This document shows, one piece after another, positions 5,201-64,000 of a DNA stretch of 64,000 nt. Numbering within the stretch: the stretch's first letter is position 1; each line of letters starts with the position of its first letter. Origin of the DNA: Antedon mediterranea. Taxonomy: Eukaryota; Animalia; Echinodermata. A program made the position numbers and the translations under genes. The notes beneath the pieces were generated by a model, which was not told where the DNA came from, did no database searches, and saw only the letters and a program-made list of their open reading frames with translations. The DNA is taken from assembly GCF_964355755.1 (NCBI RefSeq), contig NC_092674.1, forward strand, positions 1,736,001 through 1,800,000, in the 5' to 3' direction.

Positions 5201-6247
5201 CGTTGAAAAAATACAAACATGTCCGAAGATCCGATCGTGATTAATCGTTCTGGAGAATGTGATCCAAAAAGTGGCGCGCTCGAGTTCCCGTTTATTATTA
5301 GCTTATTCTATTTTGGTACCACTGATTTAAATTGCCTTGATCTGATTGGTGCATTCTTTTCCATACAAAGGGGAACCAAAGGCCCTTTCTTTTTATTAGA
5401 GTGTGTGTCAACCGTGATCTGGATTGAATATTGAAAACACAATTACAAAAGCAGTAGTTCATAGCTATTGATACGATAAATCCAAATATAAAAGGTTGAA
5501 TAGTTAGTTAGATAGCGTGCGTCAATGAGAACAATAGTGTTGCTATTTTTGTTATGGTTTATCGAATCAAGGAAGTAACCACAATATTTTAAAACGTATA
5601 TAGAAAACTTGTTGGATAAAAAACACCAAAAACGTATTAGAATTATGTTTCTTCGTAAAGTAATATTATTTTTTATATCCACACAGGTGTATGCACAAAA
5701 TGGTAAGTAAAATTGTAGTGTGGACGTACGTACATGCTTATTGTATGGATACTTTTTTGTTCTACTGAATACCAAGTCTGATCATCATAAACAGCAGGGC
5801 TTACAAACTTTTCTTACTTCTACCGCGCAAAGTACCCGAGTTTGTTTGTTTGGACCCGTAGGTGGTTGTAAATCATCACCAACTCCTGGGTATATAATGT
5901 ATATAATAAATAAATTTATTTGTTGCCTAGTGAAGATGACACGCCACTAATGTTAATTCTAAAGATATCAACAGTCACCCATGACCTATAGGCATGATAG
6001 ATAAATAAGCCAACCAGAGGTGGCTAAAGCAACATGGCTGACTCAAAGAGCTAGTCCTACATAACTTAGGTCTAAGTTGCTTGCATGGTAAGGGTTATAA
6101 TATATAGCTTATACGACCCTTCTTTACTTTCTGTGCAGCAAGACTTTACTATGACATGACTGGACGAGTAGCTTATGATATTTATAATAGTAATACGCCT
6201 ACCTTGTCGGTTAACATTAGAATTACATTTTTATTTTTTTCATAAAG

Positions 6248-19900: not shown

Positions 19901-22900
19901 GAACGTAAGAACGTAAGCGCATCGCACGTAATTTTACCAATCATGACGTGCATGGGTTATCCGAACTGTCGCTTGACAACTCACTTGCGTTGCGCTTACG
20001 TACTTGCGTTGCGTCCTAGCGGCAACCAAGCTTAAGGTTATGTATTGAATTGGTTTGTTTTTATTTATCTATTATTTTGTTAAGCTCACACGAACGTGTG
20101 TTGCGCTGCATCCAAGCATTCCTGATTGGTTACTCATTTTTGTCGCATCACAAAAAGTGAATGGAAACATAATATAAACACGCACGCACATAATATTTTT
20201 ATATCGACTTACTGCAAAATTATTTGTGTAGAGAAACATATTCTCTGTAACATTTGACAGAAACACATCTGGTAGAAGTAACTCAGCTGGCGGACTTGAG
20301 GGATTGACGATCGAGTTATTTGTGGAGAGAAATGTATTCTCTGTAACGTTTGACGGAAACGTAAACAAATCTAGTAGACTACTCTTTCTAAGTAAATCAG
20401 CTGGCGGACTTGACAGAATGTTGATCGAGTTATTTCCAATTTCCGATCTACTCATTTCATCCGTTGAAATCGGCGTAAAAGTGGTTGTTAATGATCTCAA
20501 CAATGGTTCTTGAAAAAGAATGAATTATAAGGTCAGTTCAAGTGAGATCAAGTGTTTGCGTGTTTCGCGCCACATATCAGAAATCATAGATAAGTTGACC
20601 TTGTACAAACCAGGTACGCGCGCGCACATTATTACATTAGATGACAAAAACGGGAAGCAACAGAGAAAGAAGAATGATCTCACTCACACTAAATAATGTT
20701 GACCTGTTGGTTTATATTTGTCAAAACTTTGAAGAACTGGGCTATATAGATTTTAATAACAAACATATACAAACAAGGGAAATGTGGATTCTTCTCCTCA
20801 GAATAGGTCAATAATAAAATGTACGTACCTCTGTCATTTCTTATAATAGTTTTACTAAGTAAAGTGGTTTTCTGTAGTGTAGGTTTGTTTGTAGTCACTT
20901 CAAAGTTTTTGGAAATATTATTGCCTATATAAGTAAATGCAAATATAAATCATACAAACACCCTTGTTATGTTTGTATGCAATATCTTAAAAAGAGCTTG
21001 CATAAAGCAAATACAGGTTGGTAGTTAATATCTACAATTTCTCTTAACCAAAGTGCCGTATTACTTAGCATTATAAAAAAAAATTCAACAATGATAAAAC
21101 CGATACACGGATTCACACATTCCATATTCATTATTATTATTTAAAAGTAATGAACCAACAAACAACAACAAAGTAGGTTTCTTCTTGTGTTCGTTAGTTA
21201 AAGTGTATTGCACGTTTTACGTGAAATCAGTTAATACCAATAAATATTTAAAATAAAGTTACTGGCGGCCACACCTTGCAATAGAAGCAATAACCCACTA
21301 ATGTTATCTGGTTGTCCGCATTCATTGCCCAACCAAATCGTATTACCCAAAGGGACCAATCGACAAGCTCGTTGTTAATCTGTCTACACTATCAAACTAG
21401 TTTGACAAAAAAATGTGTGATATGCTCAAATATGGTAGTGATATTTTTAAATATGATAGTGTATGACATCATCATATTCATAAATGGCCACATCACATAA
21501 AGTTTGATAGTGTAGACAGAGCTTTAGATTGCTTACAAGTTTAGACTTTTATCGTAAGCTTGAAATACAGAAATAATTGTCCTTACCGGTACGATGTACT
21601 TGAAATGCCCACTTCCCTCCACAGGTTTCCTCGAGGTTCCCAGGGCATTGAACGTCACAATTCGTGCTGTTTATTCGATTCTCCATGAACACGTTGTTAA
21701 AACAGTTACACTCAAAACCATAATTCAGTGCCGCATATACATAGTGTATGGCTGTACAGTGTTTAACACACATGTCAATATCCATGAAAACGCTTTCTAT
21801 TAAAAGTGTAGAAAAAGCGAAGGAATAGCTAAAGCATCCTACATAATCATCTGTAAACAAGATTGACATAAAGAAGTTTGGAAAAATACCATAGAGATAT
21901 TAAAAAGATACTATAGGATGAATCATAGTTATAGTGAGTTTATCAAGATTGACATAAAGAAGTTTGGAAAAATACCATGGAGATACTAAAATGATACTAA
22001 AGGATGAACCATAGTTATTGTGAATTTATCAAAATTGACATAAAGAAGTTTGGAAAAATACCATAGAGATACTAAAATAATACTAGAAGATAAACCATAG
22101 TTATTATGAGTTATCAATGTAGTTCTCTTTATAAGATCATCGGGAAATACTAAACAATAAACACGAGGATACGACTTGCAATACTTTGATTATCTCAAAA
22201 GTAGGGCAGAAAGATTGTTTCTATAAAGGCTAGGCACACATTGCTTTTTAAGAAAATATTAGTTATGTACGTACCTCTATCGCTGAAAATCATATGTAAG
22301 GGTGTTCCTGGGTTGTTTGTCGTCAAAGTAATTCCTAAAATGTGATTAAAAGAAGAATGATACATTATATTACTTAGTAAATCGATCTTTTAAATTGACA
22401 TTAATAAATGCAAAATATCAACCAAACCTAGTCGTTACTTAAATTAATGCAAATATGTCACATGCTCGATCTCAATTCATTCATACACACTATTCAGCAC
22501 TAGAAGAAATAGCTTTTCTCATGAGGGCCCCTACAATACAAATATGCAAAAATTGAAAATGCTTTGAATACAGCTGAAGTACACTAAGACAATCAGTTCA
22601 CAAATGTTGTGTTTATTACAACACATTCACATTTAATCAGCAATATAACTATTTACATTACAGGGTAATTGTCTGTAGTCGTAAGATTGTGTCACTCTGA
22701 TTGGAGCTTGATGTGAACCAGGTTTACCTGTACTGTGCACTTGTGATCGCATTACACCTCCGCATGTTTCCATTACATTTCCCAAACATGGCACGTCACA
22801 ATAACTGTTGTTTACTCTGGTCGAGAAGTCGACGTCATTTGTGCAGATACACTCAAAACCAAAATGCAAAGCGGCGTAGAGGAGACCGTTATCATGACAG

Positions 22901-24977
22901 TATCTAATGCATATGTCAATACCTAGGTCTTGTTGAGTTGACGTGTATGTGTCAGAAGCAACAAAACTGTCTGAGAAGCATCCAATATAATCAACTAGAA
23001 ATATAACAGTCATTTCAACATTATACCAACACGAATGTAACGTAGATGACGTCATGGTATATTCTTTTCAACAACATTTATATTTTAACCCACGTTTGTC
23101 TTTGTTTTTTTTTAATTTCATTTCTTTTTCATCGTTAAAGCGTTGCAATTTTTGGAGCTTTACTGCTTTTTCTTAAATTTTTTTGGTATTTAATGGGATC
23201 ATTTTTAGTCGCGTGGAAGCGACTCTATAGTTCACTATGTCGGTCGGTCGGTCTGTCTGTCTGTCTGTCTGTCGGTCTGTCGGTCTGTCTGTCTGTCTGT
23301 CGGTCCGGTATCACTATGCGTTTTATCGCTTTATGACCTTATCTTGATATCAGTTTAATCTAGCTAGGTCAATTTTTCACAGTATATTCCTTATGGCCAG
23401 GAATCAATGTGGTTATGTTTTCACGGTGCGCAATAAAAAATTACGCGGTCTACGCACGATTTAACGAAATCACGTTTGTAATCATATCTTCACAACCATG
23501 AATCACAATTAAATAAAATTTGGTACTCATAAATTTCAGGGCATAAATCATCATATGGCAATACAATTACGTGCGTAGCGCATGTAACGCATGCGTACGC
23601 GCGCTTAAAATTTTCAAAATTTATTTTCGATGAAATAAGAAATAAAATAATAATAATAATAATAATAATTTCAGGCAATTTTAAGCGTTTACAAAATTGC
23701 CATGAGTGCGCATATTTTTGCGCGCGCACTGCGCGTTAAATGTTATTGCGCACTCTTTTTGCCCGATTTCTGTTTTCTTGACTTATTTTTCAACTCGAAA
23801 TTACGTTATACGAGCACGTCGAAAGTGACAGGCTACGCACGTGTAAATTAAAAAAATTTAAATGTCTTTAAACATTTCAACATTTTTAAACATGTTCAGT
23901 AATTTCGGTCAGTATAGTTCACTTTGTCGGTCGGTCGGTCTGTCTGTCTGTCTGTCGGTCTGTCGGTCTGTCTGTCGGTCTGTCTGTCCGGTATCACTAT
24001 GCATTGTAGCACGCGACTTAATGGCTGTTGGCCTTGTTGTGTATAAAGCGCTTATAAACATGGTATTATGCCCTATATAAAACTACCATTATTATTATTA
24101 TTATAAATCAAAGACTACCATTATTATTATCTGGCTAAAATATCACAAATAAATACAGTATATATTAAATTAAATACATACCACGTTTTGTAAAATGTGC
24201 TGATGCCGTGACGGTTCTTGATGATTGGGTTGTTAAAACAGAAATAGTTGTAGCATTAGGCTCTATATTTTATCAAAAATATAAATTGAATTATATTTAT
24301 TTTTCAACGTTATTTCAAGAGGGATTACAACAGTACAGCTGAATTAAAGCAAAAATAATAAAAAAAATTAATAATATTTAAAAAATTATATATTTTAAAA
24401 TAACATTAGAGATGACAACTTTCATTAAAAATTTTAAAAAATTCCATTGCTTAAATCTAATTGCGCAATTCAACCAAAAAACTCGATATCGATTTTATTG
24501 GTCGACGACGACTTGGGAAAAATGACGTATTGCATAATTTACATAATGTACTATTTCGTTGCAAATCGAACATTCTTTGCGTGGGGTAACTTTCGATAAA
24601 GTACCTTTGATATTGTGTTGACGTCTTGTGACTGCTGTACTTGTAGTGGAGAAACTACCCAAACCTTTAGAATAAAAATCAATATAACAAATAACCAAAT
24701 TCATTAAAAAAAATCTGTGGAAACGTTCCGGTTAATTATGTTGGCACTGAAACCTATATATTGGGCCAATCAATGGCAAGAAAAATTAAACTTGAGTTCG
24801 AGGAGCATTAAAAAAAACAGATAGATCGGTAAAAGAATAAGAAAAAAAAGTTCAAATCTGGTTCAGGTTTCTGTTGCAATGACGTCATCCAACGACGCTT
24901 TGCGAAGAAAATGACTACTTACCAAATAAACAAGATCCAAAAAGGAGGACCATAACACACGGACTCGCACCCTCCAT
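13984..24977 (-). CDS. Adhesion GPCR with 2 WSC domains, Ser/Thr stalk, GAIN/GPS and 7TM; exons 24977-24923, 24664-24605, 24262-24182, 22994-22728, 22334-22275, 21850-21587, 20924-20829, 20508-20213, ~19815-19710, 19288-19196, 18753-18669, 18353-18215, 17954-17899, 17645-17534, 17430-17327, 16810-16708, 16465-16248, 15920-15860, 15450-15347, 14854-14683, 14193-14122, 13998-13984
   Basis: Signal peptide MEGASPCVMVLLFGSCLFG; WSC motifs YIGCFSD...CIRYC...YAALHFGFECIC...CDVPCLGN..ETCGG (twice); GPS CVFFD...WSSRGC...CFCSHLTSFSVLM; secretin/adhesion-type 7TM motifs IHINL, LLHYL...FMWMLAEA, CWL, LLPILGLTW, YLFNILNSLQGLFLF. Confidence 0.88.
14285..14545. repeat. Intronic tandem repeat, ~73-bp unit, ~3.5 copies
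   Basis: Repeated cattctactcgaacaatacacgcgt...tgcgacgcgcgggcagtactagataat. Confidence 0.8.
21856..22115. repeat. Intronic tandem repeat, ~88-bp unit, 3 copies
   Basis: Repeated attgacataaagaagtttggaaaaataccatagagata...catagtta. Confidence 0.85.
23202..24038 (+). mobile_element. Non-autonomous Helentron/HINE (DINE-1-like) element
   Basis: T-rich 5' end, subterminal IR agtcgcgtg (23207) / cacgcgact (24010), two (GTCY)n microsatellite blocks and a short 3' hairpin before ttgtt. Confidence 0.75.
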
Positions 24978-26248: not shown

Positions 26249-27514
26249 TAATTATATCTATAACTGTAGGCATATTCTGTTTTGCAATGACTGACTAATC
26301 AAACTGATTTTATCTTCACTCTAGTCTTTTTATAAAGGTCATGTAAGTTATAATGATATCATGTGTAAAAGACTTATCTTTCCTTTCATATTTACATTTT
26401 TTTAAGAATGTGTTCAAATTGATTTAATTATGTGAATTGCGAAGGAATTGTGTATCCAAAAAGAGCGAAATCGAATCTATACTTGTGGTATATACCTGCT
26501 AGATGAGAGGCTGAGATCGTAGAATAAGCCTTAGTGAGCTTTTTTTCACTAGAGCTATGTGTATTGTGTTGTCCAGTAGCTACTGGGAACTTCAAATCTA
26601 TGTTTGCATGTTTTAAAATATATTTCGCTTCGTTTTCAATATCTTCAAAATGACCTATGACGTCATAGTGAATGTCACAAGGATAACATGACGTGTACAT
26701 CGGATTCCAGTGAACGTTTTTCCCTGCACCAGCAACAACCATGTTGATGAAGTCTACAAATTCAATTTTCTTGGAAGAGGAATTCTCTTTGAAATTTTTA
26801 TTAATTATGTTTCTAAATTTATTTATGCCTTTTTCCTTTTTACCATCGTCAGTAGCAAATTTCTGAGTGTAAGCGGATAGCAAACGTGACAGAGGATTTC
26901 TGACGAACATGAATTTCGTGTAGGTGGCCATTATGTGCTTCCGTTTCTAGGCAGAAAAACGTGTAATTCTTGGAACATGTTTTTTCCATGACTTGCTTAC
27001 TTCTGCAACGCTTAGTTTCATGACTTCTGTATAGTTCTTGTACCCAGATAAGACCAACATTATTCGACACCAGCTGGTTGTACTGACTTTTGGCGTTTGA
27101 CAGTAGACGATTTTGTGTTTTTCATTTACCAAAAGTCTCGGCACCATCTTTTTACTAGGGATATTCTTCCTGTACGTTTCACACATTTTCTTCGTATGTT
27201 CTTGTCTATCTTTGTGTATCTTTGCATATCGTTTCATGAACTCCACGGTGTTTTCAACTCTGTTATGTGTGGAGTTCCTTTTTGTTTCTGATGAAACCTG
27301 CTGGGATAATTAAGATAAACATTACTGCCTATCCAAAGCTCTTTACAAAAAATGATTACCAGGTCTACATTATATTATTTCGGGAAAGAGGTGCGTTTTT
27401 AAGATTTTAATGTGTGTATGATTTCGTTTTTGTTTTTTAGGTTATTCCACATAGTCTGACCAAGCTTTGAAATGTATGTTCATCAGATGATCGGTTAACA
27501 CAAGGAACATTAAG

Positions 27515-29392: not shown

Positions 29393-32223
29393 CTACGAAC
29401 TTTCTAACTCTGTTTGAACAAACTTTCTAACTCTGTTTGAAAATATGTTATCTAAAATTGGAATGGACAGTGAATTAATTGTTGTTGGCGATTTTAATAT
29501 ATGTACTTTAACAAAGTCATCTTTATTGAATAGCTATAATCAAATTCTAAGTATGTTTAGTTTAAGTAACAAAGTAACTGAACCAACTAGGATATGCTCT
29601 ACAGTTGCTTCTTGCCTCGATCATATATTATGTAATAATGAGAATAAGATAAGCCAATCGGGTACAATCGCAACAGGTCTAAGCGATCACTTAATGACAT
29701 TTTGTACACGGAAAACTATTAAACTTAAGTTCAATGGACATAAAAATGTATATATCAGATCACTAAAAAACTATACCGTTGATCAATTTAGAAACATACT
29801 AATAGATATCGATTGGTCAGTAGTTACCTCTATCGGAGATGTAAATGAAGCTCTGTATAAATTTAATGCATTACTTTTGGCTGCTATTGATTCCATTGCC
29901 CCCCTTAAAAACATTAGGATGAAACAAAGAACGGAACCATGGTTAACTAGAGAAATATTACAAGACATTGAAACCAGAGATAAATTATTAAATATGTATA
30001 ATAAAAACAAGAATAATACCGACTTATTAATACAATTTCGCAAACTAAGAAATAAATTACAGCGTGATATAAATAAAGCTAAATCAAATCATTTGTTAAA
30101 CAAGGCTAAAGAAAATAAAAATAACCCTAAAAAATTATGGAAAATGTTTAAAGGACTAGGCTATAGTAATAAATCTAAGGATAGTGCTAAAACGGTTATT
30201 GACCTGCCCAATGGTACTAAATGTTTCGACCCAGCCAAAATTGCTTCTTGCTTCAACGAATATTTTACTACTATTGCAGCCAATTTGGTCAGTAAACTTC
30301 CATCCCCTAAGAATGTGTATGACTGTACGTCGTCCAAACTTAAGGATTTCTATAGAACCGTTAGTGGCAATAACTTTATGCTCAACTCAGTGGACGAAGA
30401 CTTTATATATAGTGAATTAAACAAACTTAATGCGACAAAAAGCACGGGTGTCGATAAGATACCTCCCCGCTTCATAAAAGATGGGGCTGAAATCCTAAAA
30501 GTTCCCATTACCTACATAATTAATTTATCAATTAGTACCAGTACAGTCCCAGAAGACATGAAAAAGGCCAAGGTCATACCTCTTTATAAAAAAGGTAGTA
30601 GAACCGATATTGGAAACTATCGCCCTATAAGTATACTCAGTACAATGTCTAAAATTTTAGAGAAGGCTGTTTTTATTCAAATCGAAAAATACCTTACTGA
30701 AAACAACGTATTGTATAAATATCAATCTGGATTTCGAGCTGCCTTCTCTACTGACACATGTTTGATAGACTTAGTTGATTCCCTTAAAACCCAAACTTCT
30801 AAGGGAAATTTCTCGGGTATGGTGTTGGTCGATTTAAAGAAGGCATTTGACACTGTAGATCATGACATTTTATGTAATAAGCTTAAATTAATGGGTATTG
30901 GATCTATTGAATGGTTCAAATCTTACATATCAATAAGAAAGCAAATAGTAACTGTTGATGATCATTGCTCTCAATCTTGTACTGTTACATGCGGGTTCCT
31001 CAAGGAAGTATCCTTGGACCCCTTTTGTTCTTATGTTTTGTTAATGACATGGTAACTTGTATTGATCCTGATTGTAAACTCCTTCTATACGCTGATGACA
31101 GTGCAATTGTTTATTCACACAGAAATCCAGATATTATTTCTAAGAAGCTAGGGTCAACACTAGACTCCTTGTGTGATTGGCTTGTAGACAATAAATTAAC
31201 AATTAACCTGGATAAAACTGAGTGTATACTATTTGGTTCTAAGAAAAAAACTAAAAATGTTAACAATTTTAATGTCTCAACAAATGGTAACAATATCAAC
31301 ACTAGTAATTGTGTCAAGTATCTTGGTATTGAAATAGATCAAAATTTAACGTGTTCTGAATATGCATGTAAAACCATTAAGAAAATTAATAATAGGCTTA
31401 AGTTTATGTACCGCCAACGTAAGATACTAAGTTGTAAGAAACTATTATGCTCTGCTCTCATCCAATGTGTTTTTGATTATGCTGAATCTTCTTGGTTCTG
31501 TGGAACCAGTAAAGCTATCCAAAGAAAACTACAAATTGCTCAAAACAAAATGGTTAGACTCATAAAAGGAGTTGAACCCAGAAGACATATAGGTGCTGAT
31601 CAATTAGACGATTATGGATTGTTAAATGTAAAATATCGAGTAAAGTTCTTTCAAATTAGCCAAGTTCATAAGATATTTATGGGCAGAAGTGCTTCATACC
31701 TAAACGAAAACTTTCGTAGAGTTAATAACTTACATGGTCACTTCACTCGTGGTAGTAAACTCAATTTTGTTGTACCTAAGGTCCAAGGCATAGAATGTAA
31801 TACATTCTATTTTAATGCAATCAGAGAATGGAATAACCTTCCTGACTATATTAAACAAATTTCCAACACATCTAAATTTAAAACTGAATTGAAACAATAT
31901 TACAAAATTAAACATAGATAAATTATTATTGTGCCATTATATCCGATGTTTTGCTTATATGCTTATATATTTATGAACCCCATCTTATAATGTTTGTTTT
32001 GTTAAAATTATAATTACTATCTCTTTAGGGACCACATTGGAATTAAGTTGTTTTACTTTAAACGACTTTATGTGTTTTCCCGTGCATCGTCAGACTTCAT
32101 TAATCCCGCCATTTTTATTTGCTTTTTTGATGTATTTTAATATTTAAGGTGATTATATATATTATTGATGTATTTTTAATGTTATGTATTGAGATGCCAA
32201 ATAAATGAAAGAAAGAAAGAAAG
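29393..32223 (+). mobile_element. 5'-truncated LINE (L2/CR1 group) ORF2, endonuclease + RT, one frameshift near 30995
   Basis: APE motifs VGDFN, LDHI, SDH; RT motifs YRPISIL, QSGFR, DLKKAFDTVDH, PQGSILGP, YADD; 3' (GAAA)n tail after aataaa. Confidence 0.93.
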
Positions 32224-36017: not shown

Positions 36018-39000
36018 TTATGACTGTAGATTTTCTTTCCAAGCTGTTTTGGGTTTATTGAATTTGTCTCCTGTGCAAAAAAAAAAACGGAAAGAGATAT
36101 TTAATTAGGTTTTTAAAATTACAAACAAATAATTATGTTACCACTATTTCCTGTGTTTGGGAATTTTGTTACAAATTTGTTTAAATTATTAAATTTAACA
36201 CAAGAAAACATACCTTGTCCTTTAAACGAAGCCAAGCTTGAAATACCGCTGTCCTTGGATACAACAGACCTTGTGTCGCCCTCATCGGAATCTGATGAAT
36301 TACTGTCGTGACGTTTGCTCTTTAGGTCCGATTCTTCCATTTGTTCCACTTTTACTTCATCTACAGAATCATCTGACAAATACAAAAGTTCATGAAGTAT
36401 GTCAAAGGCAAAGAAACTCTTAACCCAAAGTTTAAACTATCCAACGAGACCATGTAAAAATTATTTTACTTCAGTTAACGACATTTTGTTTAATCTTTAC
36501 TCTGCAATTATTTATCAAGGTTTTTTTAAATTAAATTATACACACTATATTGATTGCCTTATACACTTTTACGTTGAAACAAAAATAACATGGTATAGCA
36601 CTGAAGTAAAATATTACAGTACTGCAGTATACTGTAGTAGAATCATTTGTACACAGCCTCTAAACAATACTATACTCAAAATACAAAAAGATGAGATATA
36701 CAGTACTGTATTTATTAATATAAGGAAAGATAGATTGTAACAGCTAGTGAAACCCCTTTTGACAAAATCACAATTTTATAAAAATGGCTCATTTACTAAT
36801 GATAGACTCACCTGAAGAGTCTACTTCAGGGTCATCATCTGACAGAATAACTGTTTCTTTTGGTTCTTGTGTTGATTTTCGCTCTGCATTCTAAAATATA
36901 AAAGCATATCACAAAAGTAACAAAAATAGTTAATTAAAATAAATTGTTATTATACTTGATTTCAAATTGAATAGACCAATCTCATTGTGCTAATAAAAAT
37001 AATAATTTTATTATTTAAGAAGACAAAAACTTTACATACATCAAAACGTCGTTTATATGCTGGATACTTCATCTTTTGTTCAGTTCTTGCAAGAACCATT
37101 TGTATTCTTCTCTTTAAATTTTCCCAATCCACTGAATGAGGCTTGCCTTGTTTCCACAGCTGCTCTTCAATCTTTAGTGCCTCATTGAAATTCTCTTCTG
37201 CACTCCGCATATCACCTCTGTGGTTGCGTTCATAGTAGAACAGACCTAGTAGGTAGTATGTACGTGCTGTGTCTGTATGAATGCCTAGCAACTCCATACG
37301 CCTACTCGCACACCTTTCTCCAAAGTCAATAGCATCTTCATATCTGTGAAGAAAAAGAATACAAATATGATATGGTTTTATGCACTCTTTTGGGATAAAT
37401 GAAACTTTAATATTATTTTATTTATTATCAATTATGTTAACTCCACCTTTTTTAGGAGACATAATTAATTGTTTTTGAAAGTTCCAATGTTGTTTCTTTG
37501 TTTCTTTGTTGCTTACTTTCTTGATGTTAATTTTATCAAATTTGTATTGATGTAATTAATAAAGAATTAAAGTATATTCTGGGGACATTTTCCTGTAAAT
37601 CAAATGACAGTATGTTTGTCAATGCTTACATGGGACACCACTGAAAGGTGACACTTTGTTGGGTCCCAAAGATGTTCCCTTAATTAAGTATTTAATTCAA
37701 TCAAAGAAAAATTGCAAAGTTACTTGTCCTCATCTCTCAATGCGAGTGCTAGATTTCGCAAAGTCTTCAGATAACCTTCTTCATTATCAATAACCATTTC
37801 ATCCTCCACACGCAAAGACCTTCTGTAATATTCAATAGCGTTTTCTCCTTCTTCCAGCTGATAATAACATGAACCAATATTTGCAAGGTAAACTGGAATA
37901 TCAGGATGATGTTCTGATTGGGTGAGTTCCATTCTTAATTCGTATGCCTTGCGGTAAAATTCTAGCGCTTCTTTTATTTTGCTCTTTTCACACAAAGCAT
38001 TGCCTTGCTGAAGCCGAGATTTGTTCAATATTAGATCTGCCATAGTGCTGTAGAAACGAGCTGTATTGGTATTCTTCAGCTTCAGTTCTTTCAAGAGATC
38101 ATATGCAATCCTGATTCTCTCAACAGCTTTGTCAAAATCTTTCAAACATGTGGTACAAACATTGCCCCAGAGTTGGTAAAGCAAATTTAATTTTTCTTTT
38201 TCAGCATCAGTAAGAGAATTGACATGCTTTGCTGCAAAATATTTTTCAGATTTCTTTCTGAAAAGCTTTGTTGTAAGTGACATTTGATCAGAGGTTTCTT
38301 CTGGCTTCTTGGTTCTCAGAAGTTCCTGTTCAGCTGCTTCTAGCAATGGTAGAATTTCTTCATATCGATAGTTAATTCTTGACATCTGCAATCCTTCATA
38401 AGCTGACATTTCAACAAACTGTAGAAGATTATGACTTTCGTACTCAAGTTCACGTTGAGCTTTGAAAAACTTCAATCTTTCTTTGGTTGAATAAAATAAC
38501 TCCACAGTAGACGATATTACTCGCCATTCCTCAGTATCAACACTTCTTTTTTGTTTTGGCAGAAGTTTAAGAAGCTCTTGAAAATTAGCTGCATCTTCGT
38601 TCTTTCGTTTCATTGCTTTCTTGTATCGTTTCTCACTCAGTTGTCCAATTTTCTTAAGCTTCCGGAGAAAGTAACCAATAAACTCTTGCTCTCCAATTTC
38701 GTATTCACTCGTGACAGATTTGTCTATTTGGGCAATCTTCTGAAGGAATTGTCGCATTAGAAGATGCATCCCATAACGCACATCAGACTTGTTAAAATCT
38801 TCATTGTCATCTATCGATGTTTCAATCAGGTTTCTATATTTGAGATCCTGAAGTTGGAGGTTCACTTCAACTCGCTGTGATCGCTTCATTCCAAGAATTG
38901 CCATAGCTGCTCGACTTGTAAAAGTACCAGGAACAGTAGCGAGTCGAATCATGCGGAACTTTTGGTTGTCTGGTAAGCTGTCAATTGTGTTCTTCAAGCA

Positions 39001-40259
39001 AGCTTCTAAATTGACATCTCCATAAAATCCCAGCTGGGTGACCTCATCTGAGCGACTCTCCAAATACTCAATTAGTTTTTTAGGTGGAATAGTGTGGTCT
39101 TGCAGACGACTACCTGTTACTTTCAACGCCAATGGACACTTGCCACAAATGTGTACAAGCTTTTGTGCTTCTTCATCAGATATATCGGTCCTACCAGCGT
39201 AATACTGCAGGATGTCTCTTGCATCATCGTACTCCAGTTCATCTGCTTTTATAGAAATAGACTCCACACATTTCTCATAACGTGCACAAAGTTTTCGAGG
39301 AAGCCCCATTCTGGTTGTGATCAAAACCTTTAGACAGGTGTTCCCACATTCAATAATTCTTTCTATAAGTTCAACAAAGTTGTTGTACACGTCATCCTTT
39401 ACTCCTTCTTTTGGTGTTCTTAGAGGGCGATCGGCGTTGTCAAACAAAAGTACAGCTCCACCTATTTATAGCATGAAAAAAAAACATAATTACAACTAAA
39501 GTACATTAAGAAACAAATACTCTTTGGTATTGCAATCTTCCGGACAAACTAGTCTAACGTGACAGAAATACAGATTATGGTTATGTGTGAGGGGGAGAGT
39601 CGGGGCCATAAGTACGTACCAGCTTTCTTTGGTTTGTATTGTTTCAACCTCAAAATCAGAACATCAATATCCACCATTAAAGTAGGAACTTCACCCATGG
39701 TATGCAAAACTGCATTAAAGATGCTCTCAGTCGATGACAGCTCCCGGAGGTCAACAAACAGCAACTCATGGTACTCTATCTGCCGGTAACATGCCTCCTT
39801 TGCTAGCCTAGTTTTACCCATACCAGGAAGGCCACTGATGCAGATTGTTGCCACACCATCGTCGTCATGTTTTTCTCCAAGGAGATAAAACAATTGCTCA
39901 AGACGATCTTTCCTACCAATAAATGGACCCTCTGAAGCTGCAGGATGCTTCCGATAATGCCTAGCAATAACGGCATATTCCGAGTTGTATTTATTAAGCT
40001 CTTCTATCAAATCATTCCGCCCAATCTCATACAGGATGTGTCGTAGTAAGAGAGTATCCCCTTCGTGGAAATGATTTCCTTCTTGTAGCTTATCGAAAAA
40101 GTCGAACGTGTCCTTAATATCCTCATAATTTCTAGCCCCAAGTCTGTCTCTGACGAGTGATTTTGCCGCCTTCAATTCTTTACTAGTAATTTCGTTCGCA
40201 AAACAAACGATAAGCCATCGAAAACGACTAATTGAGCTTGGATCGTTTGACGACGCCAT
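36018..40259 (-). CDS. NLR-like STAND protein: death effector domain + NB-ARC-type NTPase + TPR repeats + acidic tail (copy 1); exons 40259-39620, 39461-37724, 37343-37040, 36890-36812, 36372-36214, 36070-36018
   Basis: N-terminal DED-like region (FRWLIVCFANEITSKEL...FFDKLQE...LLRHILYEIGRNDL, with the RxDL signature); FIGR; Walker A GLPGMGKT; Walker B VLLFDNAD; sensor-1 VLITTR; GxP motif CGKCPLAL; MHD-equivalent MHL; 42-aa-type TPRs (HPDIPVYLANIGSCY...AIEYYRRSL; HTDTARTYYLLG). Open frame with phase-consistent GT-AG introns. Confidence 0.88.
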
Positions 40260-44908: not shown

Positions 44909-47570
44909 ACCCAGCAAACAATTTTACGTTTTGGTAACGTTATAATTACGTTATTTTTTTGTTATAAAAACGTTTTCTAATAACGTTGTACGAACGCAAA
45001 AATGTCGACCTTTTTATACGACTTCAATTCAATTCAATTCAATTCAATTCAAAATTCTTTAATCATCCCACACGGGGCAATTCAAATAAAAAGGTCTGGA
45101 TTAAAATGATCTTACAAAATATACAAAATATCACAATACACAGAACAAAATAGAAAAAAAGTCAAGTCAAGGTTCAAGAATTTAAGAGTCGAATAGCCAC
45201 TGGCAAAAACGAATTCCTTTTCCGGTTTGTTCTACATGCCGGGCATCGAAAGCGACGCCCATGAGGCATGAGCTCGAAATCACTGAACAAGGCATGGTTA
45301 ATATTTTTTAGAATAGCTCTACTTTTTTCTAGAGTTTGCATGTCACAGAAAGAAGATAAGCTACGAAGTTGACAACCTATTAATTTAGAACTTAAGTTAA
45401 CAATTCTTTGTAGTGAGTTTTTCTCTTTGACCCTAAGACTAAAAAACCAGCATATAAAGGAAAAAGTTAAAACGTTCTCAATAAAGGAATTATAAAAAAC
45501 CCTAAGAATTACTTTATCGACATTAAAATGGTTCAGCTTCCTTAACAGATAAAGTCTCTGGTGTCCTTTCTTTACTATTGCCTCTGTGTTTAATTCCCAG
45601 CCGAGATTGTCCTCAAATATAGTACCTAGGTATTTAAAGGAATGGACAATATCGACTGGTTCGTCATTTATAATGGATACCCAAGGGTTGCGTCCTTTCT
45701 CCTTCCTAAAATCTACAATCATCTCCTTGGTTTTGGTCACATTGAGTTCCAAGTAGGAGTTTCCACAAAATTGGATAAAATCATCTAAAGCGGAACCATG
45801 GCCGTCCTGTGAATTTTGAAGGAGAGACAGCAAGACAGTGTCGTCAGCAAATTTAACAAGATGACTATTGTCCTGTTTGCTGCGACAGTCATCCGTGTAT
45901 ATAATATACAGGAGAGGAGAGAGGACGCAACCCTGGGGGGATCCAATACTTGTCATACGTACATTCGAGTGTCTTTGGTTAACTAAGACCCTCTGACATC
46001 TGTTCGTAAGAAAACTTATAATCCATAATACAAAATCACGTTGAAAACCAAAATTCGAAATTAATTTGTTTGCTAAAATATAAGGGTGCATGGTATTGAA
46101 GGCAGAAGAGAAGTCGGCGAATAACATTCTGGCGTGAGATCGAGGCAGTTCAAGGTGCTTGTACAATGTGTTTAATAAAAAAAGCTTGGCATCCTCAACA
46201 CCTCTTCCAGACCTGTATGCAAACTGCAGTGGATCGAGTTTAGACTCTACAACAGACGTGATGTAGGTTTTAACTATCTTTTCAAAGATTTTCATAACAA
46301 GAGATGTCAGCGCAATAGGGCGCAGATCATTCAGTTGTTTTATGACAGTCTGTTTAGGAATAGGTTTTATAATCGATTCTTTCCAAAGATTAGGAACTAC
46401 ATACTGGTTTATAGAGGTCTGGAAGAGGTACCGAAGGACACCACTGAGCTGATCCGCACACGACTTCAATGTTCTGCCCTCAATACCATCGGGACCAGAA
46501 CTCTTATTTACATTTATATTCCTGAGTAATGTTCTAACATGATCCTCAGAAATAATAATTTCATCTACATGCGGATCATTATTGCCAACAGTGTCGTCTT
46601 TTAAATCGTGTTTTTCAAACCTAGCAAAGAAGTCGTTTAATCTATCTGGCAATGCCTGGTCATCAATACCCTCTACATTTATTTTATTTCTTTGTGTTTT
46701 ATCAGCTGTGTTTATAGACGCCATATGTTTAATTCCTTGCCAAGCACTACGAATACATCCACTACTAAACTTATTTTCAATTTTTCTCTTATACATGTCT
46801 TTAGCCTTACGGACAGCTACTTTAACTTCTTTATTTATTTGCTTATTATCGTGAGTGGTGCCTTGGTAAAAAATCCGTTTCTTCTTATTTAATATGTCTT
46901 TCAACTCTTTCGTAACCCACGGCTTATTATTTGCAAAAACGACAACCTCTTTTTTCGGTAATACTGAATCAACACAATAATTTACATATGATGTTATAAC
47001 ATCCGCCATTTCGTTTAGATTTGGTGACGACTCATAAAATACTTGCCAATCAGTGCATTCAAAACACCCTCTTAGACTTTATAACGTCCAAAATAACGTG
47101 TTTATAACGTTTTTTGAACGTCCTCAATAATGTTCATAAATAACGTGTTAAATACGTATTTATAACTTCTACAATAACGTTGCACGAACGAGAAAATGTC
47201 GACCTTTTTATACGACTTTATAACGTCCAAAATAACGTTCAAAATAACGTGTTTATAACGTCTTTTGAACGTCATCAATAATGTTCATAAATAACGTATT
47301 CAAAACGTATATACAACTTCTGCAATAACGTTGATAAAAAACGTGTCCTAAACGTTTTTTTAACGTTTTATGTAATGTTTGTAAATGACGTGTTTGCAAC
47401 ATGTTTTTAACGTCCAAAATAACATTCATACATAACGTATGCAACGCGTTTTTATAACGTCCTAAAAATGTTCACAATTAAAGTGTTAGGAACGTGCCTT
47501 CTACGTTTGTAAATGACGTATTTGCTACGTGTTTTTAACGTTCTCAATGTTTTTAAATAACGTATGCGAA
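44909..47570. mobile_element. End of an EnSpm/CMC-like DNA element with ataacgt-rich subterminal repeats, interrupted by a LINE
   Basis: Begins acccagcaaaca; dense aacgt/ataacgt repeats at 44920-45024 and 47075-47570. Superfamily is inference and the other terminus was not found. Confidence 0.55.
45025..47074 (-). mobile_element. 5'-truncated LINE (Rex-Babar/L2-like) with intact RT frame 47009-45174
   Basis: LRPIALTS, LDPLQFAY, FADFSSAFNT, GSPQGCVLSP, KFADD; (GAATT)n tail at 45025-45050; GACTT duplicated at both junctions. Confidence 0.92.
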
Positions 47571-55989: not shown

Positions 55990-58203
55990 ATTTATAATAA
56001 TAATAAATAATATATTTATACAGGATAAAACAATCAGATAACAGTGTATCTGTTTTACATTGTGGTCCTGTCTTAATCAAAATATACAAAAGAGAAACTT
56101 AATTAAATATAATACATGTCAGTTTTTTATGAAAAGAAATGAGATTTGTATCTAGCCTTAAAGGACGTAATTGTTGGTGCCGATTTAATATTAATTGGTA
56201 AATTGTTCCATATTTTTGCGCCTGCAACTTTAAAGGACGAATTCATTTTACTAAGGGAGTATTTAGGTATTGTTACATTCAAATTTTCTACTCCACGTGT
56301 TAAGTGGGTGTGAATATCGCGAATCAATTCAATTTCATTTACTAATCTAATTGGTGCAAGGCCGTAAACACATTTATACATTAGACATGCTAGGGAGAAA
56401 TCTCGTTTCTCTTCAAGAGTTTGCCACGATAGGTTCTGGATGATGTTGTCACCCCTTACATTAATATAATCGAAGTTGTTAGTTACAATTCGAGCAGCTC
56501 TTTTTTGATGTCGCTTTAAAATATTTTTGTTTAACTCTGTCGTATTTCCCCAGACTGTTATAGCATAATCACTACAAGGCTGAATTGTACTTATATATAG
56601 AGTTTCAAGTAACGGTTTACTTAAACTACTAGCCATTTTACCTAGCATTGTTATTTTATATCCAATATTTTTACTAATACATTGAGTATTTTGTTTCCAA
56701 GTTAACATTTCATCGATTACGACTCCCAGATACCTTATACTATCAACTTGTTCTAATTTACTGGTTCCAATTTGTATATTTAAATCATTACTGTCAGCTG
56801 TATGATTGTTTCTTAGTAACATAACCTTTGTTTTTTCAGTATTTATAGAGAGGTGGTTGTCATCATACCATTTACCAATGTTATCAATAATTATTTGTAA
56901 TGAATCATTTACTATCTTAGCAGTATCACCTGAGGTGTAAACCACAACATCATCAGCAAAAACGCTGCAAGTTCCATTTACTATAGACTGCGAAATATCA
57001 TTTATGAAAATGAGAAACAAGATGGGTCCCAGGACACTTCCTTGTGGAACACCAATATTGATTTCTTTAAGTGTAGATTTGTTATTGTTACAGTATACAA
57101 ACTGTTTTCTGTTTTTTAAGTAATTACTAAACCAGTAAACAACATTTTCATGGAAACCATATTTGTAAAGCTTAAATAACAAAATTGAGTGATCTATCGT
57201 GTCAAAGCACTTGGATATATCTAAGAAACAAGCGCCGACGACCTCTGAGTCATTAAAACTTTCTAACCAATCATCAACTACTCTGTGCAAGCATGTTACA
57301 GTAGAATGGTTTTTCAAAAAGGCAAATTGATCAATGTTAATCAAATCAAACAAACTAAGAAAAGAAATGATTTGTTCCTGAACCACTCTCTCTATAATCT
57401 TTGCGATATGAGCAACGACAGATATTGGTCTGTAGTTGCTCATACTGTCTTTACTACCCTTTCCTTTATATATAGGAGTTGTCCTTGCTACTTTCCAATC
57501 AGCTGGGACAAGACCAGACATGAGAGAGAGATTCACAATATGACACAATGGATAAGCAATGTACGGAGCTGCTAACCTTAACAATTTACTATCAAAATCA
57601 AGAACATCTAAATTTTTTTCTGGCAAATTATAAAGCTTCCTTTTAATGGTATTTACATCAACATTTATAAAATTAAAGGAATATTCACTAGGTGGATTAT
57701 TCCAACTTGGCAGCGTATCGTCAAATGACTGCGCCATCTTAACTCCTATGTTGGTAAAGTATTCATTAAAATGTTCGCAATCAATAGTTTGTTAGATTTC
57801 GTTTTACCAGTTAGTTTATTTAGCTCGTTCCACATTTTTTTTGGATTATTTTTATATTTTATATTTACATTATTAAAATAGTTATACTTTGCTTTCTTAA
57901 TGTTAGTGTTAACCAGATTTCTAAGTCTTCTATACTCAGTTTTTAATCCTGGATTATTAACATTTACTTTGCTTTTAGTATAATCTCTTTTGTACATTAA
58001 CTTTATAATTTCAGGAGTTATCCAGGGAGAGAATCTATTTTTTATTCTTGAATTTTTTATAGGCCCATGTTTATTACTTAAATTTAGAAAGCAATTTTTA
58101 AACGTACCCCATGCATTGTCAACGTTATTAATATTGTGAATATTTTGTAATTTCTGAGAATGGGAAATATCATGCAAGAATGCCCCTTCATCAAAGTTCT
58201 TAT
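55990..58203 (-). mobile_element. 5'-truncated LINE (L2/Crack-like) ORF2, frameshift near 57770
   Basis: YRPISVV, FLDISKCFDTIDH, GVPQGSVLGP, FADD; (TTA)n-like tail. Confidence 0.92.
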
Positions 58204-58929
58204 ATTAGCTTAATTAAATATACATTGGTATAAGTTATAATAATGAAAATCATCTTTATTTACAACTGTAGGCCTATACAAATTACATTATTTTCTTCGC
58301 GCAAGTCCGACTTGAGCTACGTCACGCCATAGCGACAATGGGAGATGCGGCAATTCACCACGCGATGGAATGTTTAGGGGGCCTAGCGCTTTCTTGTCAC
58401 GCTTTGAAGTGCGTGGTTCGTGGCGATCATACTTTGTTGGGGGCCTAGAAAATATAAAAGTTACCGTACCGCCATGGTTCCTAAATATATTTTGAAGATT
58501 TTATTTGTTGTTAATCAAATATACTTCACTGTTAAATTAATACTGATATTGTTCTAATAATTAACGATTAAAATTATTTTTCATGTATATTTTTCTATGC
58601 TTGTTTTTGTTTTATGTTATTTCTGCTTTTTGTATTATTGTTTTATTTTTCTGGATAATCAATGAATACTGAATACTGAATCTATTTTTTATTTGTTGTT
58701 CAACAACTCGCTTCTACTTTGGCATTCTTCTCCGAGAATCAGTCTGAAAGATAACAAAAATCAAGACAGTGATTTGCAAAGGAGACCTGTTCCTCTATGT
58801 ACAGTCAGTATATAGCAGATAAAACTGAATTATGCACTTCTCTAGTCTGAAGGAGGACTATTATATAGTATCATTCAGGTTGAATAAAAAGGAATTTATT
58901 TAATATTTACCCTTTAAAATAAATACTTG

Positions 58930-61925: not shown

Positions 61926-64000
61926 TTATGAATGTAGATTTTCTTTTCTTGCTGTTTTTGGTTTATTGAATTTGTCTCCTGTGCAAAAAAAAGGGAAAGA
62001 GATAGAAAAGTAGGTTTTTAAAATTACAAACAAATAATTATGTTACCACTATTTCCTGTGTTTGGGAATTTTTTACTAATTTGTTTAAATTATTAAATTT
62101 AACACAAGAAAACATACCTTGTCCTTTAAACAAAGCCAAGCTTGAAATACAGTTGTACTTGGATACAACAGACCTTGTGTCGCCCTCATCGGAATCTGAT
62201 GAATTACTGTCGTGACATTTGCTCTTTAGGTTCGATTCTTCCATTTGTTCCACTTTTACTTCATCTACAAAATCATCTGTCAAATACAACAAAAGTTCAT
62301 GAAGTATGTCAATGGCAAAGAAACTCTTAACCCAAAGTTTAAACTATCCAACGGGACCATGTAAAAATTATTTTACTTCAGTTAACAAAATTTTGTTTAA
62401 TCTTTACCCTGCAATTATTTATCAAGGATTTTTTTAATATAATTATACACACTATATTGATTGCCTTATACACTTTTACATTGAAACAAAAATAACATAG
62501 CACTGAAGTAAAATAATACAGAACTGCAGTAGAATAATTTGTACACAGCCTCTAAACAATACTACTCAAAATACAAAAAGATGAGATATACTGTATTTAT
62601 TAAGAGACTGCTAGTGAAACCCCTTTTGACAAAATCACAATTTTATAAAATGGCTCATTTACTAATGATAGACTCACCTGAAGAGTCTACTTCAGGGTCA
62701 TCATCTGACAGAATAACTGTTTCTTTTGGTTCCTGTGTTGATTTTCGCTCTGCATTCTAAATATAAAAGCATATCACAAAAGTAACAAAAACAGTTAATT
62801 AAAATAAATTATAATTATACTTGATTTCAAATTGAATAGACCAATCTCATTGTGCTAATAAAAATAATAATTTTATTTAATTATTTAAGAAGACAAAAAC
62901 TTCACATACATCAAAACGTCGTTTATATGCTGGATACTTCATCTTTTGTTCAGTTCTTGCAAGAACCATTTGTATTCTTTTCTTTAAATTTTCCCAATCC
63001 ACTGAATGAGGCTTGCCCTGTTTCCACAGCTGCTCTTCAATCTTGAGTGCCTCATTGAAATTCTCCTCTGCACTCCGCATATCACCTCTGTGGTCGCGTT
63101 CATAGTAGAACAGACCTAGTAGGTAGTATGTACGTGCTGTGTCTGTATGAATGCCTAGCAACTCCATACGCCTACTCGCACACCTTTCTCCAAAGTCAAT
63201 AGCATCTTCATATCTGTGAAGAAAAAGAATACAAATATGATGTGGTTTTATGCACTCTTTTGGGATAAATGTGACTTTAATATTATTTTATTTATTATCA
63301 ATTATGTCAACTCCACCTTTTTAGGAGACATAATTAATTGTTTTTGAAAGTTCCAATGTTGTTTCTTTGTTGCTTACTTTCTTGATGTTAATTTTATCAA
63401 ATTTGTATTGATGTAATTAATAAGGAATTAAAGTATATTCTGGGGACATTTTCCTGTAAATCAAATGACAGTATGTTTGTCAATGCTTACATGGGACACC
63501 ACTGAAAGGTGACACTTTGTTGGGTCCCAAAGATGTTCCCTTAATTAAGTATTTAATTCAACCAAAGAAAAATTGCAAAGTTACTTGTCCACATCTCTCA
63601 ATGCGAGTGCTAGATTTCGCAAAGTCTTCAGATAACCTTTCTCATTATCAATAACCATTTCATCCTCCACACGCAAAGACCTTCTGTAATATTCAATAGC
63701 GTTTTCTCCTTCTTCCAGCTGATAATGACATGAACCAATATTTGCAAGGTAAACTGGAATATCCGGGTGATGTTCTGATTGGGTGAGATCCCTTCTTAAT
63801 TCGTATGCCTTCTGGTAAAATCCTAGCGCTTCTTTTATTTTGCTCTTTTCAACCAAAGCATTACCTTGCTGAAGCCGAGATTTGTTCAATATTAGATCTG
63901 CCATAGTGCTGTAGAAACGAGCTGTATTGGTATTCTTCAGCTTCAGTTCTTTCAAGAGATCATATGCAATCTTGATTCTCTCGACAGCTTTGTCAATATC
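61926..64000 (-). CDS. DED-NB-ARC-TPR paralog (copy 2), 3' part; exons >64000-63585, 63213-62910, 62756-62678, 62276-62118, 61978-61926
   Basis: Near-identical exon, intron and 3'-flank sequence to copy 1 (61122-64000 vs ~34871-38140). Frames are open and splice sites preserved. The N-terminus lies outside the window. Confidence 0.88.

Follow-up and report, generated by a model that had tools for sequence, protein, structure and literature searches.

Does an animal genome join an intracellular nucleotide switch straight to the death effector domain (DED) machinery? The question is raised by a gene in a 64,000-nucleotide stretch of the genome of the crinoid Antedon mediterranea, which was analysed as a whole and is called the window here. 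The gene encodes a protein of DED–NB-ARC–TPR layout, and we asked what its structure, relatives and conserved residues suggest about the pathway in which it acts.

Gene structure

The gene lies on the minus strand (36018-40259), as do all features given below, and has six exons separated by five introns, all with GT-AG borders. Its coding sequence of 2973 nt is free of internal stops and encodes 990 aa, and the translated product matches RefSeq XP_071950316.1 (P0006) from A. mediterranea at 100%, bearing out the intact six-exon gene that an earlier note had read from the DNA. Exon 1 (39620..40259, aa 1-213) encodes the DED and the first half of the NBD, and exon 2 (37724..39461, aa 214-793) encodes the remaining NBD, HD1, the winged helix, the arm and the first TPRs. 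Exon 3 (37040..37343, aa 793-894) and exon 4 (36812..36890, aa 895-921) are followed by exon 5 (36214..36372, aa 921-974), which encodes an acidic, Ser-rich tail with pLDDT<50, and by exon 6 (36018..36070, aa 974-990 and the stop), which ends without a CaaX box.

Spliced joints of introns 1-4 (four of the five), with CT..AC ends, were found in contigs of the sequencing runs X1 and X5, which come from two studies and include the joints of exons 3 and 4; none of the runs is recorded as RNA, and a near-identical second copy could be part of the source of these contigs. No joint of introns 1-4 was found in contigs of runs X2 or X4, and that of intron 5 is not among the joints listed for runs X1, X2, X4 and X5. 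Bacterial contamination or a recent transfer was ruled out by the introns and the crinoid orthologues.

The nucleotide switch and the overall fold

The domain layout proposed in the earlier note was supported by profile searches, in which all three domains scored above their Pfam cut-offs: 54 bits against 35.9 for the DED, 35 against 23.5 for NB-ARC (aa 118-339) and 72.2 against 30.1 for TPR_12. No NACHT, CARD, LRR or WD40 match was found in Pfam at E<=0.01 on the full protein. The STAND motif series read from the translation is also present in full, together with RNDL in the DED, and its catalytic residues are nearly invariant in the family. It consists of Walker A GLPGMGKT (aa 143-150, 39810..39833; G148, K149 and T150 in all 33 aligned rows), Walker B LLFDNAD (aa 218-224, 39430..39450; D221 in 35/35), which has DNAD instead of DDVW, the sensor-1/RNBS-B motif ITTR (aa 261-264, 39310..39321; T262 in 35/35, R264 in 32/35), the GxP/GLPL-type motif CPLAL (aa 322-326, 39124..39138; P323 in 37/37) and the winged-helix motif MHL (aa 445-447, 38761..38769; H446 in 40/41). 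MHL is the usual state in the family, with Asp after His446 in one amphioxus branch only. By analogy with H382 of PH0952, which contacts the ADP phosphate from the winged helix (PMC6468293, excerpt), His446 is predicted to make the same contact. When the ATPase was compared by sequence profile, bacterial AfsR (E 3e-27) and plant NRC4/NRC2 scored above Apaf-1 (E 3e-13), and PADLOC returned no match for the crinoid protein. The protein is an NB-ARC STAND protein and neither a NACHT-LRR NLR nor Apaf-1.

An AlphaFold model built from 42 sequences (pLDDT 77.7, pTM 0.72) resembles PH0952/MalT and Apaf-1, in agreement with the STAND class and the sensor-switch-effector design that had been proposed. 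The best Foldseek matches of the model were PH0952 (6mfv, E 1.7e-13) and ADP-bound Apaf-1, and structural alignment gave Z scores of 28.1 for Apaf-1 (3sfz; rmsd 3.6, 412 aligned), 27.1 for MalT (8bob) and 26.1 for PH0952 (606 aligned), the NBD-HD1-WHD-arm fold itself reaching Z 26-28 to Apaf-1, MalT, PH0952 and NRC1. The predicted fold is a closed one like that of resting Apaf-1, MalT and PH0952. The TPR sensor, placed by Pfam and the model at about aa 559-901 (36870..38427, exons 2-4) with about seven helical hairpins, aligned with the peptide-binding TPRs of LGN/Pins, Rap and KLC at Z 19-25. Orthology to kinesin light chain or nephrocystin-3 was rejected, the similarity being at the TPR level only, and the name 'nephrocystin-3-like' of P0010 is an automatic label. 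Among six crinoid paralogues, the fraction of invariant columns is 0.40 in the TPR region and 0.36 in the NBD.

A widespread family with tandem copies in crinoids

The earlier note had described NB-ARC-TPR sensors as characteristic of fungal and bacterial NLR-like immunity and as poorly characterised in invertebrates. The crinoid protein is no oddity taken over from such immunity: homologues of the same layout were found in each of the five echinoderm classes, in hemichordates and amphioxus, and in a chiton and an annelid, with none from vertebrates among the named family matches, and similar genes had already been listed in invertebrates. An N-terminal DED is attached to the same NBD in 17 of the best 150 matches, 13 of which have the TPR region too, and an Atlas cluster (n=75, mostly cnidarian) has the DED in 77%, AAA_22 in 91% and TPR_12 in 79%. 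The family tree, which took in no Apaf-1 sequence, recovered an echinoderm-wide orthologue clade with support of 96/92, and the identity of the crinoid protein to three Anneissia paralogues is 64-72%.

Death-fold–NB-ARC–TPR genes are catalogued, in the excerpted surveys, from corals, Hydra, Trichoplax, Nematostella and amphioxus, and Apaf-1 homologues are described as including DED effectors and TPR sensors (PMC2246300, excerpt). A coral table has DEATH–NB-ARC–TPR in 10 of the 30 'death' rows listed, of 48 (PMC10236652, excerpt); the excerpted coral supplement files 6 and 7 contain no 'DED' label, and 'DEATH' there may or may not include DEDs. Such genes were left out of the bona fide NLRs (PMC3879445). 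The phrase 'DED-NB-ARC' was not found in the literature searched, where Hamada 2013, Huang 2008 and Lange 2011 may already draw DED–NB-ARC–TPR, and 'NB-ARC-TPR' with 'metazoa' gave, by title, only algal, fungal, amoebal or general work. No functional test of any family member was found in the papers searched. The family is less exceptional than the earlier note held, and the earlier counts of its architecture in invertebrate genome surveys limit the surprise.

The crinoid clade is tandemly expanded, and most of its members carry the candidate DSGISS degron described below. The 3' part of a second tandem copy (61926..64000), 26 kb away with 94% nucleotide identity including introns and corresponding to the end of P0004, runs off the end of the window. 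Its changes D961Y, S962N and G963C abolish the degron consensus, and the copy is probably broken or split. The dN/dS between both window copies is 0.46 over 337 codons for a pair that includes this probably broken copy. Walker B is degenerate in P0009, and a DED–NB-ARC product without the sensor (P0005) is annotated in A. mediterranea.

The DED and its interaction surfaces

The DED (aa 13-93, 39981..40223) adopts in the model a death fold of six helices (12-23, 26-35, 37-47, 51-60, 70-78 and 82-102), and by sequence it is closest in the PDB to caspase-8 (E 1.7e-9) and FADD, with PEA-15 scoring far lower (E 0.19). The E/D-RxDL charge triad is complete and aligned with caspase-8 DED1 (E28, R81 and D83; RNDL at aa 81-84), whereas the FL hydrophobic patch on helix 2 is incomplete, with Ser34-Leu35 at the position of FADD F25-L26 and caspase-8 F24. 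Among 32 aligned family rows, just 6, from three lineages, have Phe or Tyr at position 34, and FL is present in one Anneissia paralogue, P0002. RxDL is missing from the amphioxus, chiton, annelid and second echinoderm branches of the family. F25 of FADD is required for caspase-8 activation, which the F25R variant barely restores (PMC11074299, excerpt). Because the DED has the charge triad but not the phenylalanine of FADD F25, direct recruitment of caspase-8 by the crinoid protein is, on sequence grounds, plausible but unproven.

A word-limited search for shorter proteins with the same DED gave 0 of 30 candidates at E<=0.01 and so yielded no crinoid partner. The DED-like region at the C-terminus of P0009 scored 28 in Pfam, below the cut-off of 35.9, and no DED structure was among the 38 phmmer matches of P0009 in the PDB.

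Different C-termini in crinoids and their relatives

A feature that is new here is a CaaX box at the C-terminus of most non-crinoid relatives, which is absent in crinoids. It was found in 9 of 13 full-length non-crinoid relatives, in none of six crinoid proteins (9/19 overall) and in 3 of 122 unrelated matches, a count made on C-termini as annotated and on sequences that are related to each other. The CaaX-ending relatives are spread over several branches of the tree. Apostichopus has one isoform with the box and another without it, in parallel to OAS1, which has CaaX-bearing and CaaX-less isoforms. The A. mediterranea protein ends in ENLQS, with no Cys four residues from the C-terminus. A hidden CaaX exon was rejected, as an acceptor scan downstream of exon 5 gave 1 CaaX-ending frame in 39 (at 32392) and 0 in 17 for the second copy, which is chance level. 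Among the literature matches listed for prenylation or CaaX of NB-ARC or NLR proteins, there was nothing on the DED–NB-ARC–TPR family.

The disordered crinoid tail contains DSGISS (aa 961-966, 36236..36253; pLDDT<50), a candidate beta-TrCP degron that fits the consensus DSGxxS (PMC13097077, excerpt). It is the longest invariant stretch in the tails of four crinoid proteins and is missing from one of four Anneissia paralogues (P0008) and from the hemichordate relatives; D[ST]Gxx[ST] arose by chance in 3% of shuffled tails. Wide conservation of the degron was rejected: DSGxx[ST] also occurs in Lytechinus and in two of three amphioxus clade A tails, but unaligned and with a shuffle chance of 2-6%. 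A basic patch (K[KR]x[KR] or KR[KR]) is present in the tails of 12 of 19 full-length members versus 4.4 expected from shuffles, and the strict basic motif is absent from this crinoid protein.

A model for signalling and its alternatives

We lean modestly towards a model in which a TPR-gated ADP/ATP switch leads to oligomerisation, DED clustering, caspase-8-type activation and cell death. At rest, the protein would be an ADP-bound monomer kept shut by the arm and the TPR repeats; TPR-STAND autoinhibition has been described (PMC6468293, excerpt). A protein ligand in the TPR groove would cause opening and oligomerisation, and the clustered DEDs would switch on a caspase-8-type tandem-DED partner, by which the cell would be killed. 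We infer nucleotide exchange and oligomerisation by analogy with the STAND mechanism and, as the weakest part of the model, which partner is bound and that the cell dies. With Ser34 in place of the phenylalanine of the FL patch, the DED would more likely use its helix 1/4 groove to take up an FL patch from the partner than, like FADD, offer one itself. Since the TPR region varies no more than the ATPase does among the crinoid paralogues, the ligand is probably conserved, whether it is a host protein linked to stress or damage or a conserved protein of microbes. A C-terminal prenyl group on the predicted CaaX box would anchor the receptor to a membrane in most non-crinoid relatives; the crinoid copies have lost the box, and beta-TrCP-type turnover may control them instead.

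A far-reaching extension, which we regard as speculative and rather improbable, is that the family represents ancient, prenylated and receptor-independent 'DED apoptosomes', in which membrane-tethered NB-ARC–TPR sensors would read a conserved protein signal at a pathogen vacuole, a replication organelle or the nuclear envelope and nucleate caspase-8 directly. Crinoids would have given up the anchor, multiplied the gene in tandem and acquired a beta-TrCP degron; a pathogen that blocks SCF(beta-TrCP) would then cause the receptor to build up and kill, and the receptor would serve as a guard on the ubiquitin system.

The absent FL phenylalanine is also consistent with another reading, which we consider unlikely: the STAND switch could use its DED for non-death signalling or nuclear surveillance, like the single-DED proteins DEDD and PEA-15. 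In a nuclear variant, relatives that combine an NLS-like basic patch with a CaaX box would reside at the nuclear envelope in the manner of B-type lamins. The frequencies of the basic patch (12/19) and the CaaX box (9/19) fit this proposal, but this crinoid protein has neither the strict basic motif nor the CaaX box, the basic patches could just as well be sites for kinases (RxxS), and the DED matches PEA-15 far less well than caspase-8.

More doubtful still is a brake or decoy, whose DED would bind the FL patch of caspase-8 or FADD and stop the chain there, capping filaments in a cFLIP-like manner, with the degron serving for quick removal when death is called for. Of the two type I faces, one is indeed degenerate (Ser34), DSGxxS degrons are frequent in short-lived inhibitors, and the sensor-less P0005 comes from the same species; a fully conserved nucleotide switch and a sensor would, however, be superfluous for a simple cap, and the Anneissia paralogue P0002 has FL. 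A degenerate Apaf-1-like paralogue with a switch that no longer works is very improbable: CARD-less Apaf-1-like proteins have been argued to be under relaxed constraint and may not oligomerise (PMC10959488, excerpt), and the seemingly split neighbour copy, the Walker B of P0009 and the dN/dS of 0.46 would agree with this, but the intact frame, the splicing in two studies, the identity to Anneissia and the supported clade argue against it, and the conservation of the catalytic motifs largely refutes it for this copy.

Comparison with known systems

The favoured model, a TPR-gated switch that clusters DEDs, has counterparts for each of its parts. PH0952 from Pyrococcus and MalT from E. coli share the NBD-HD1-WHD-arm-TPR layout and the winged-helix His with the crinoid protein, but they are prokaryotic regulators without a DED and with 12-16% identity to it; a TPR sensor has been proposed as ancestral in STAND proteins (PMC6468293, excerpt). 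Apaf-1, CED-4 and Dark also combine an NB-ARC switch with an N-terminal death fold, and Apaf-1 (3sfz) is the best structural match of the NOD, whereas the crinoid protein has a DED in place of the CARD and TPRs in place of WD40. Animal NLRs (NACHT-LRR, including echinoderm DEATH/DED-NACHT-LRR) follow the same effector-STAND-repeat logic with a death-fold effector, but the crinoid protein has NB-ARC rather than NACHT and TPR rather than LRR. The invertebrate Apaf-1-like and NOD-like genes have the same three-part design; the excerpted surveys of them are architecture counts, in which no DED-specific bilaterian family, CaaX end, degron or function appears.

On the effector side, FADD and the caspase-8 prodomain share the DED fold and the E/D-RxDL triad with the crinoid protein, which differs from them in that it couples just one DED to an ATPase of its own, involves neither a death domain nor a receptor, and has SL for FL. 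The prenylated sensors OAS1 p46 and GBP1 carry a C-terminal CaaX box as the non-crinoid relatives do, although this crinoid protein does not, and their folds are unrelated to the family. This box offers a simple handle on localisation and activation in sea urchin, starfish and amphioxus. In the known animal platforms, an NB-ARC switch leads to CARD caspases (Apaf-1), and caspase-8 is reached via death receptors and FADD. A conserved DED–NB-ARC–TPR family, with members as far apart as crinoids, amphioxus and spiralians, would add a third wiring, in which an intracellular switch acts directly on the DED machinery to which it is joined.

Gene structure and domain composition

The subject gene (36018..40259, reverse strand) is composed of six exons at 40259-39620, 39461-37724, 37343-37040, 36890-36812, 36372-36214 and 36070-36018, which are separated by GT-AG introns and translate into a 990-aa protein (P0006) with no internal stop. 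This bears out the intact gene of the earlier note, and all of the motifs quoted there are present in the spliced translation. The product corresponds to XP_071950316.1 (RefSeq, crinoid Antedon mediterranea), labelled merely "uncharacterized". Splice joints were listed for introns 1-4, intron 5 not being among them; these joints were present in contigs of sequencing runs X1 and X5 (two studies, neither recorded as RNA) and absent from those of X2 and X4. A second gene copy may be a partial source of the spliced contigs in X1 and X5.

The three domains that the earlier note had expected all scored above their Pfam cut-offs in P0006: DED (aa 13-93, 54 bits vs 35.9), NB-ARC (aa 118-339, 35 bits vs 23.5) and TPR_12 (72.2 bits vs 30.1). 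The AlphaFold2 model, built on a 42-row alignment (pLDDT 77.7, pTM 0.72), agrees with this architecture, with a six-helix DED, NBD, HD1, winged helix, an arm and ~7 TPR hairpins, and a tail that is disordered from aa 900. P0006 is an NB-ARC STAND protein, and its gene is a real, intact member of a catalogued kind.

Paralogues and neighbouring features

A second tandem copy lies at 61926-64000+ (reverse strand) and is 94% identical to the subject gene, introns included. It is annotated as P0004, a TPR-only product of 546 aa that begins at MHL. P0005, a DED–NB-ARC protein of 411 aa that ends within the winged helix and carries a 6-aa deletion after Walker A, is encoded outside the window; we infer that it is probably the 5' half of this copy. 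The other Antedon members are P0009 and the distant P0041; these two, the subject gene and the second copy each sit on a contig of one and the same length. Anneissia japonica has four paralogues on a single scaffold. P0009 (1353 aa, outside the window) lacks the N-terminal DED, has LLLANAD as Walker B and scores 28 bits for a DED, below the cut-off, in its C-terminal region; the gene may be truly rearranged, or its annotation may have been fused with that of a DED gene.

LINE-type reverse transcriptase remnants (RVT_1 matches) at 29418-31921 (forward), 45174-47078 and 56127-58204 (both reverse) flank and separate the subject gene and the second copy. Elsewhere in the window, a Sulfotransfer_2 gene at 26428-27309 (reverse), possibly a pseudogene, has its frame broken by a stop where two adjoining ORFs meet (111.9 and 34.8 bits), and a WSC-domain exon (59 bits) lies at 22633-23067 (reverse). 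Exon-like ORFs at 6172-6609 and 11309-11677 (forward), with a fibronectin type III match of 22.2 bits, below the cut-off, probably encode an extracellular or receptor protein.

Distribution of the family

A profile search over 1.84 billion representatives was performed and the best 150 matches were analysed. With local profiles, DED and NBD were found together in 17 of these, 13 of which also contained TPRs; the remainder were mostly TPR-rich proteins. Among twenty named matches, echinoderm members come from Lytechinus, Diadema, Acanthaster, Asterias, Patiria, Apostichopus and Amphiura, and others from Ptychodera, Glandiceps, Branchiostoma, Liolophura and Owenia, with Saccoglossus from a separate search. 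The search library hides paralogues >50% identical, so a non-crinoid match may stand for more than one copy. More distant relatives with no DED match were found in Nematostella and Montipora; P0097 and P0181 (Nematostella) and P0182 (Montipora) are related NB-ARC–TPR proteins that carry ZU5 and death domains at the C-terminus. The nearest Atlas cluster has 75 members, most commonly from Cnidaria (DED 77%, AAA_22 91%, TPR_12 79%).

In an NB-ARC tree of 39 rows, whose deeper forks are weak and which has several long rows, the crinoid cluster (support 100/100) is sister to an urchin/sea cucumber/starfish/brittle star clade (joint support 96/92), and a second branch joins echinoderms, hemichordates and amphioxus.

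Nucleotide switch, TPR sensor and DED

The switch residues are near-invariant among aligned family rows (K149 in 33/33, D221 in 35/35, R264 in 32/35, P323 in 37/37 and H446 in 40/41), which favours a functional nucleotide switch over relaxed constraint, an idea raised for CARD-less Apaf-1-like proteins in passages of PMC10959488. Asp follows the winged-helix His in one amphioxus branch only. Among six crinoid paralogues, conservation of the TPR region matches that of the NBD (0.40 vs 0.36 invariant columns), and four alternate TPR helices, assumed to face the groove, reach 0.56-0.64; this hints at a conserved TPR ligand. Packing constraints could yield the same pattern.

The top PDB sequence matches of the P0006 DED are caspase-8 and FADD, and its charge triad (E28-R81-D83) is complete. 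The FL patch reads S34-L35, and Phe/Tyr occupies the position of S34 in only 6/32 aligned family rows. According to passages of PMC4558505 and PMC11074299, the equivalent FADD F25 contacts procaspase-8, and FADD F25R barely restored caspase-8 activation; a FADD-like recruitment mode is therefore doubtful. Candidate alternatives are contact via the helix 1/4 groove and DED clustering on a ring. A word-limited search for shorter proteins with this DED gave no crinoid partner of P0006 (0/30 candidates at E<=0.01). We give a slightly better than even chance to the best mechanism, in which TPR-gated STAND oligomerisation, a scheme taken from parts of PMC6468293, would activate a caspase-8-type DED partner.

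C-terminal tail

Tails were compared in 19 members whose TPR region is complete, once fragments and redundant entries from clusters had been set aside. Cys is found at position -4 in 9/19 and at -3 or -5 to -12 in none, giving the boxes CRVM, CIIC, CSLA, CQLQ, CTVQ, CNIL, CKCC, CLLS and CRIS. We take this CaaX box to be a prenylation signal. It occurs in 9/13 non-crinoid members, 0/6 crinoid members and 3/122 unrelated matches (Fisher p 5e-9; sequences not independent), and it is probably ancestral because it falls on several tree branches. An NLS-like basic patch is present in 12/19 tails vs 4.4 expected and missing from that of P0006.

The crinoid tail carries DSGISS (aa 961-966), which fits the beta-TrCP consensus (PMC13097077). 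This candidate degron is the longest invariant run in the tails of four proteins (20/97 columns invariant; shuffle p 0.002); P0009 has DTGISS, and the motif is missing from the tail of the Anneissia paralogue P0008. In the second copy exactly D, S and G are altered, which accounts for three of its ~22 non-synonymous changes in 337 codons; either selection or a mutation cluster could be the cause. Crinoids apparently swapped the family's predicted membrane anchor for a candidate degron, and this anchor and its exchange are what is new here.

Further tail features were noted. P0020 (Amphiura, 871 aa) has an OTU-like protease domain (47.9 bits) within its tail, ahead of the CaaX box, either an integrated domain or a fusion artefact. 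Of P0161 and P0162, two isoforms annotated in Apostichopus, one terminates in CSLA and the other has no CaaX, which suggests splice control of membrane anchoring. P0010 and P0014 (Ptychodera) have no CaaX; the Cys-rich cluster of the former and the hydrophobic segment of the latter, both near the C-terminus, could be alternative membrane anchors.

Comparison with known systems

The architecture is of an already catalogued kind. Passages of PMC2246300 describe Apaf-1 homologues, with DEDs in Nematostella and with TPRs in place of WD40, and those of PMC6321704, PMC4083563 and PMC7642931 describe, for Trichoplax, Acropora and Hydra, NB-ARC/NACHT genes that bear death folds and TPRs. DEATH–NB-ARC–TPR appears in 10 of 30 rows examined (48 total) in PMC10236652; PMC4986451 and bioRxiv 10.64898/2026.09.21.753143 serve as context only. 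The literature searched yielded no functional study, crinoid report or CaaX mention for the family, and Hamada 2013, Huang 2008 and Lange 2011 may already show the exact architecture.

With zero Pfam matches (E<=0.01) to NACHT, LRR, CARD or WD40, P0006 is neither a strict NLR, a class from which PMC3879445 leaves out such genes, nor Apaf-1. By family profile, its ATPase scores highest on bacterial AfsR, followed by plant NRCs and then Apaf-1. VIA-align gave Z 28.1 for Apaf-1, 27.1 for MalT and 26.1 for PH0952, and 19-25 for the peptide-binding TPRs of LGN, Rap and KLC. In Foldseek, active resistosomes fit the model more poorly (rmsd ~19) than resting NRC2 (~5); ADP-bound Apaf-1 ranked second, and first was PH0952, a solved STAND structure with a TPR sensor.
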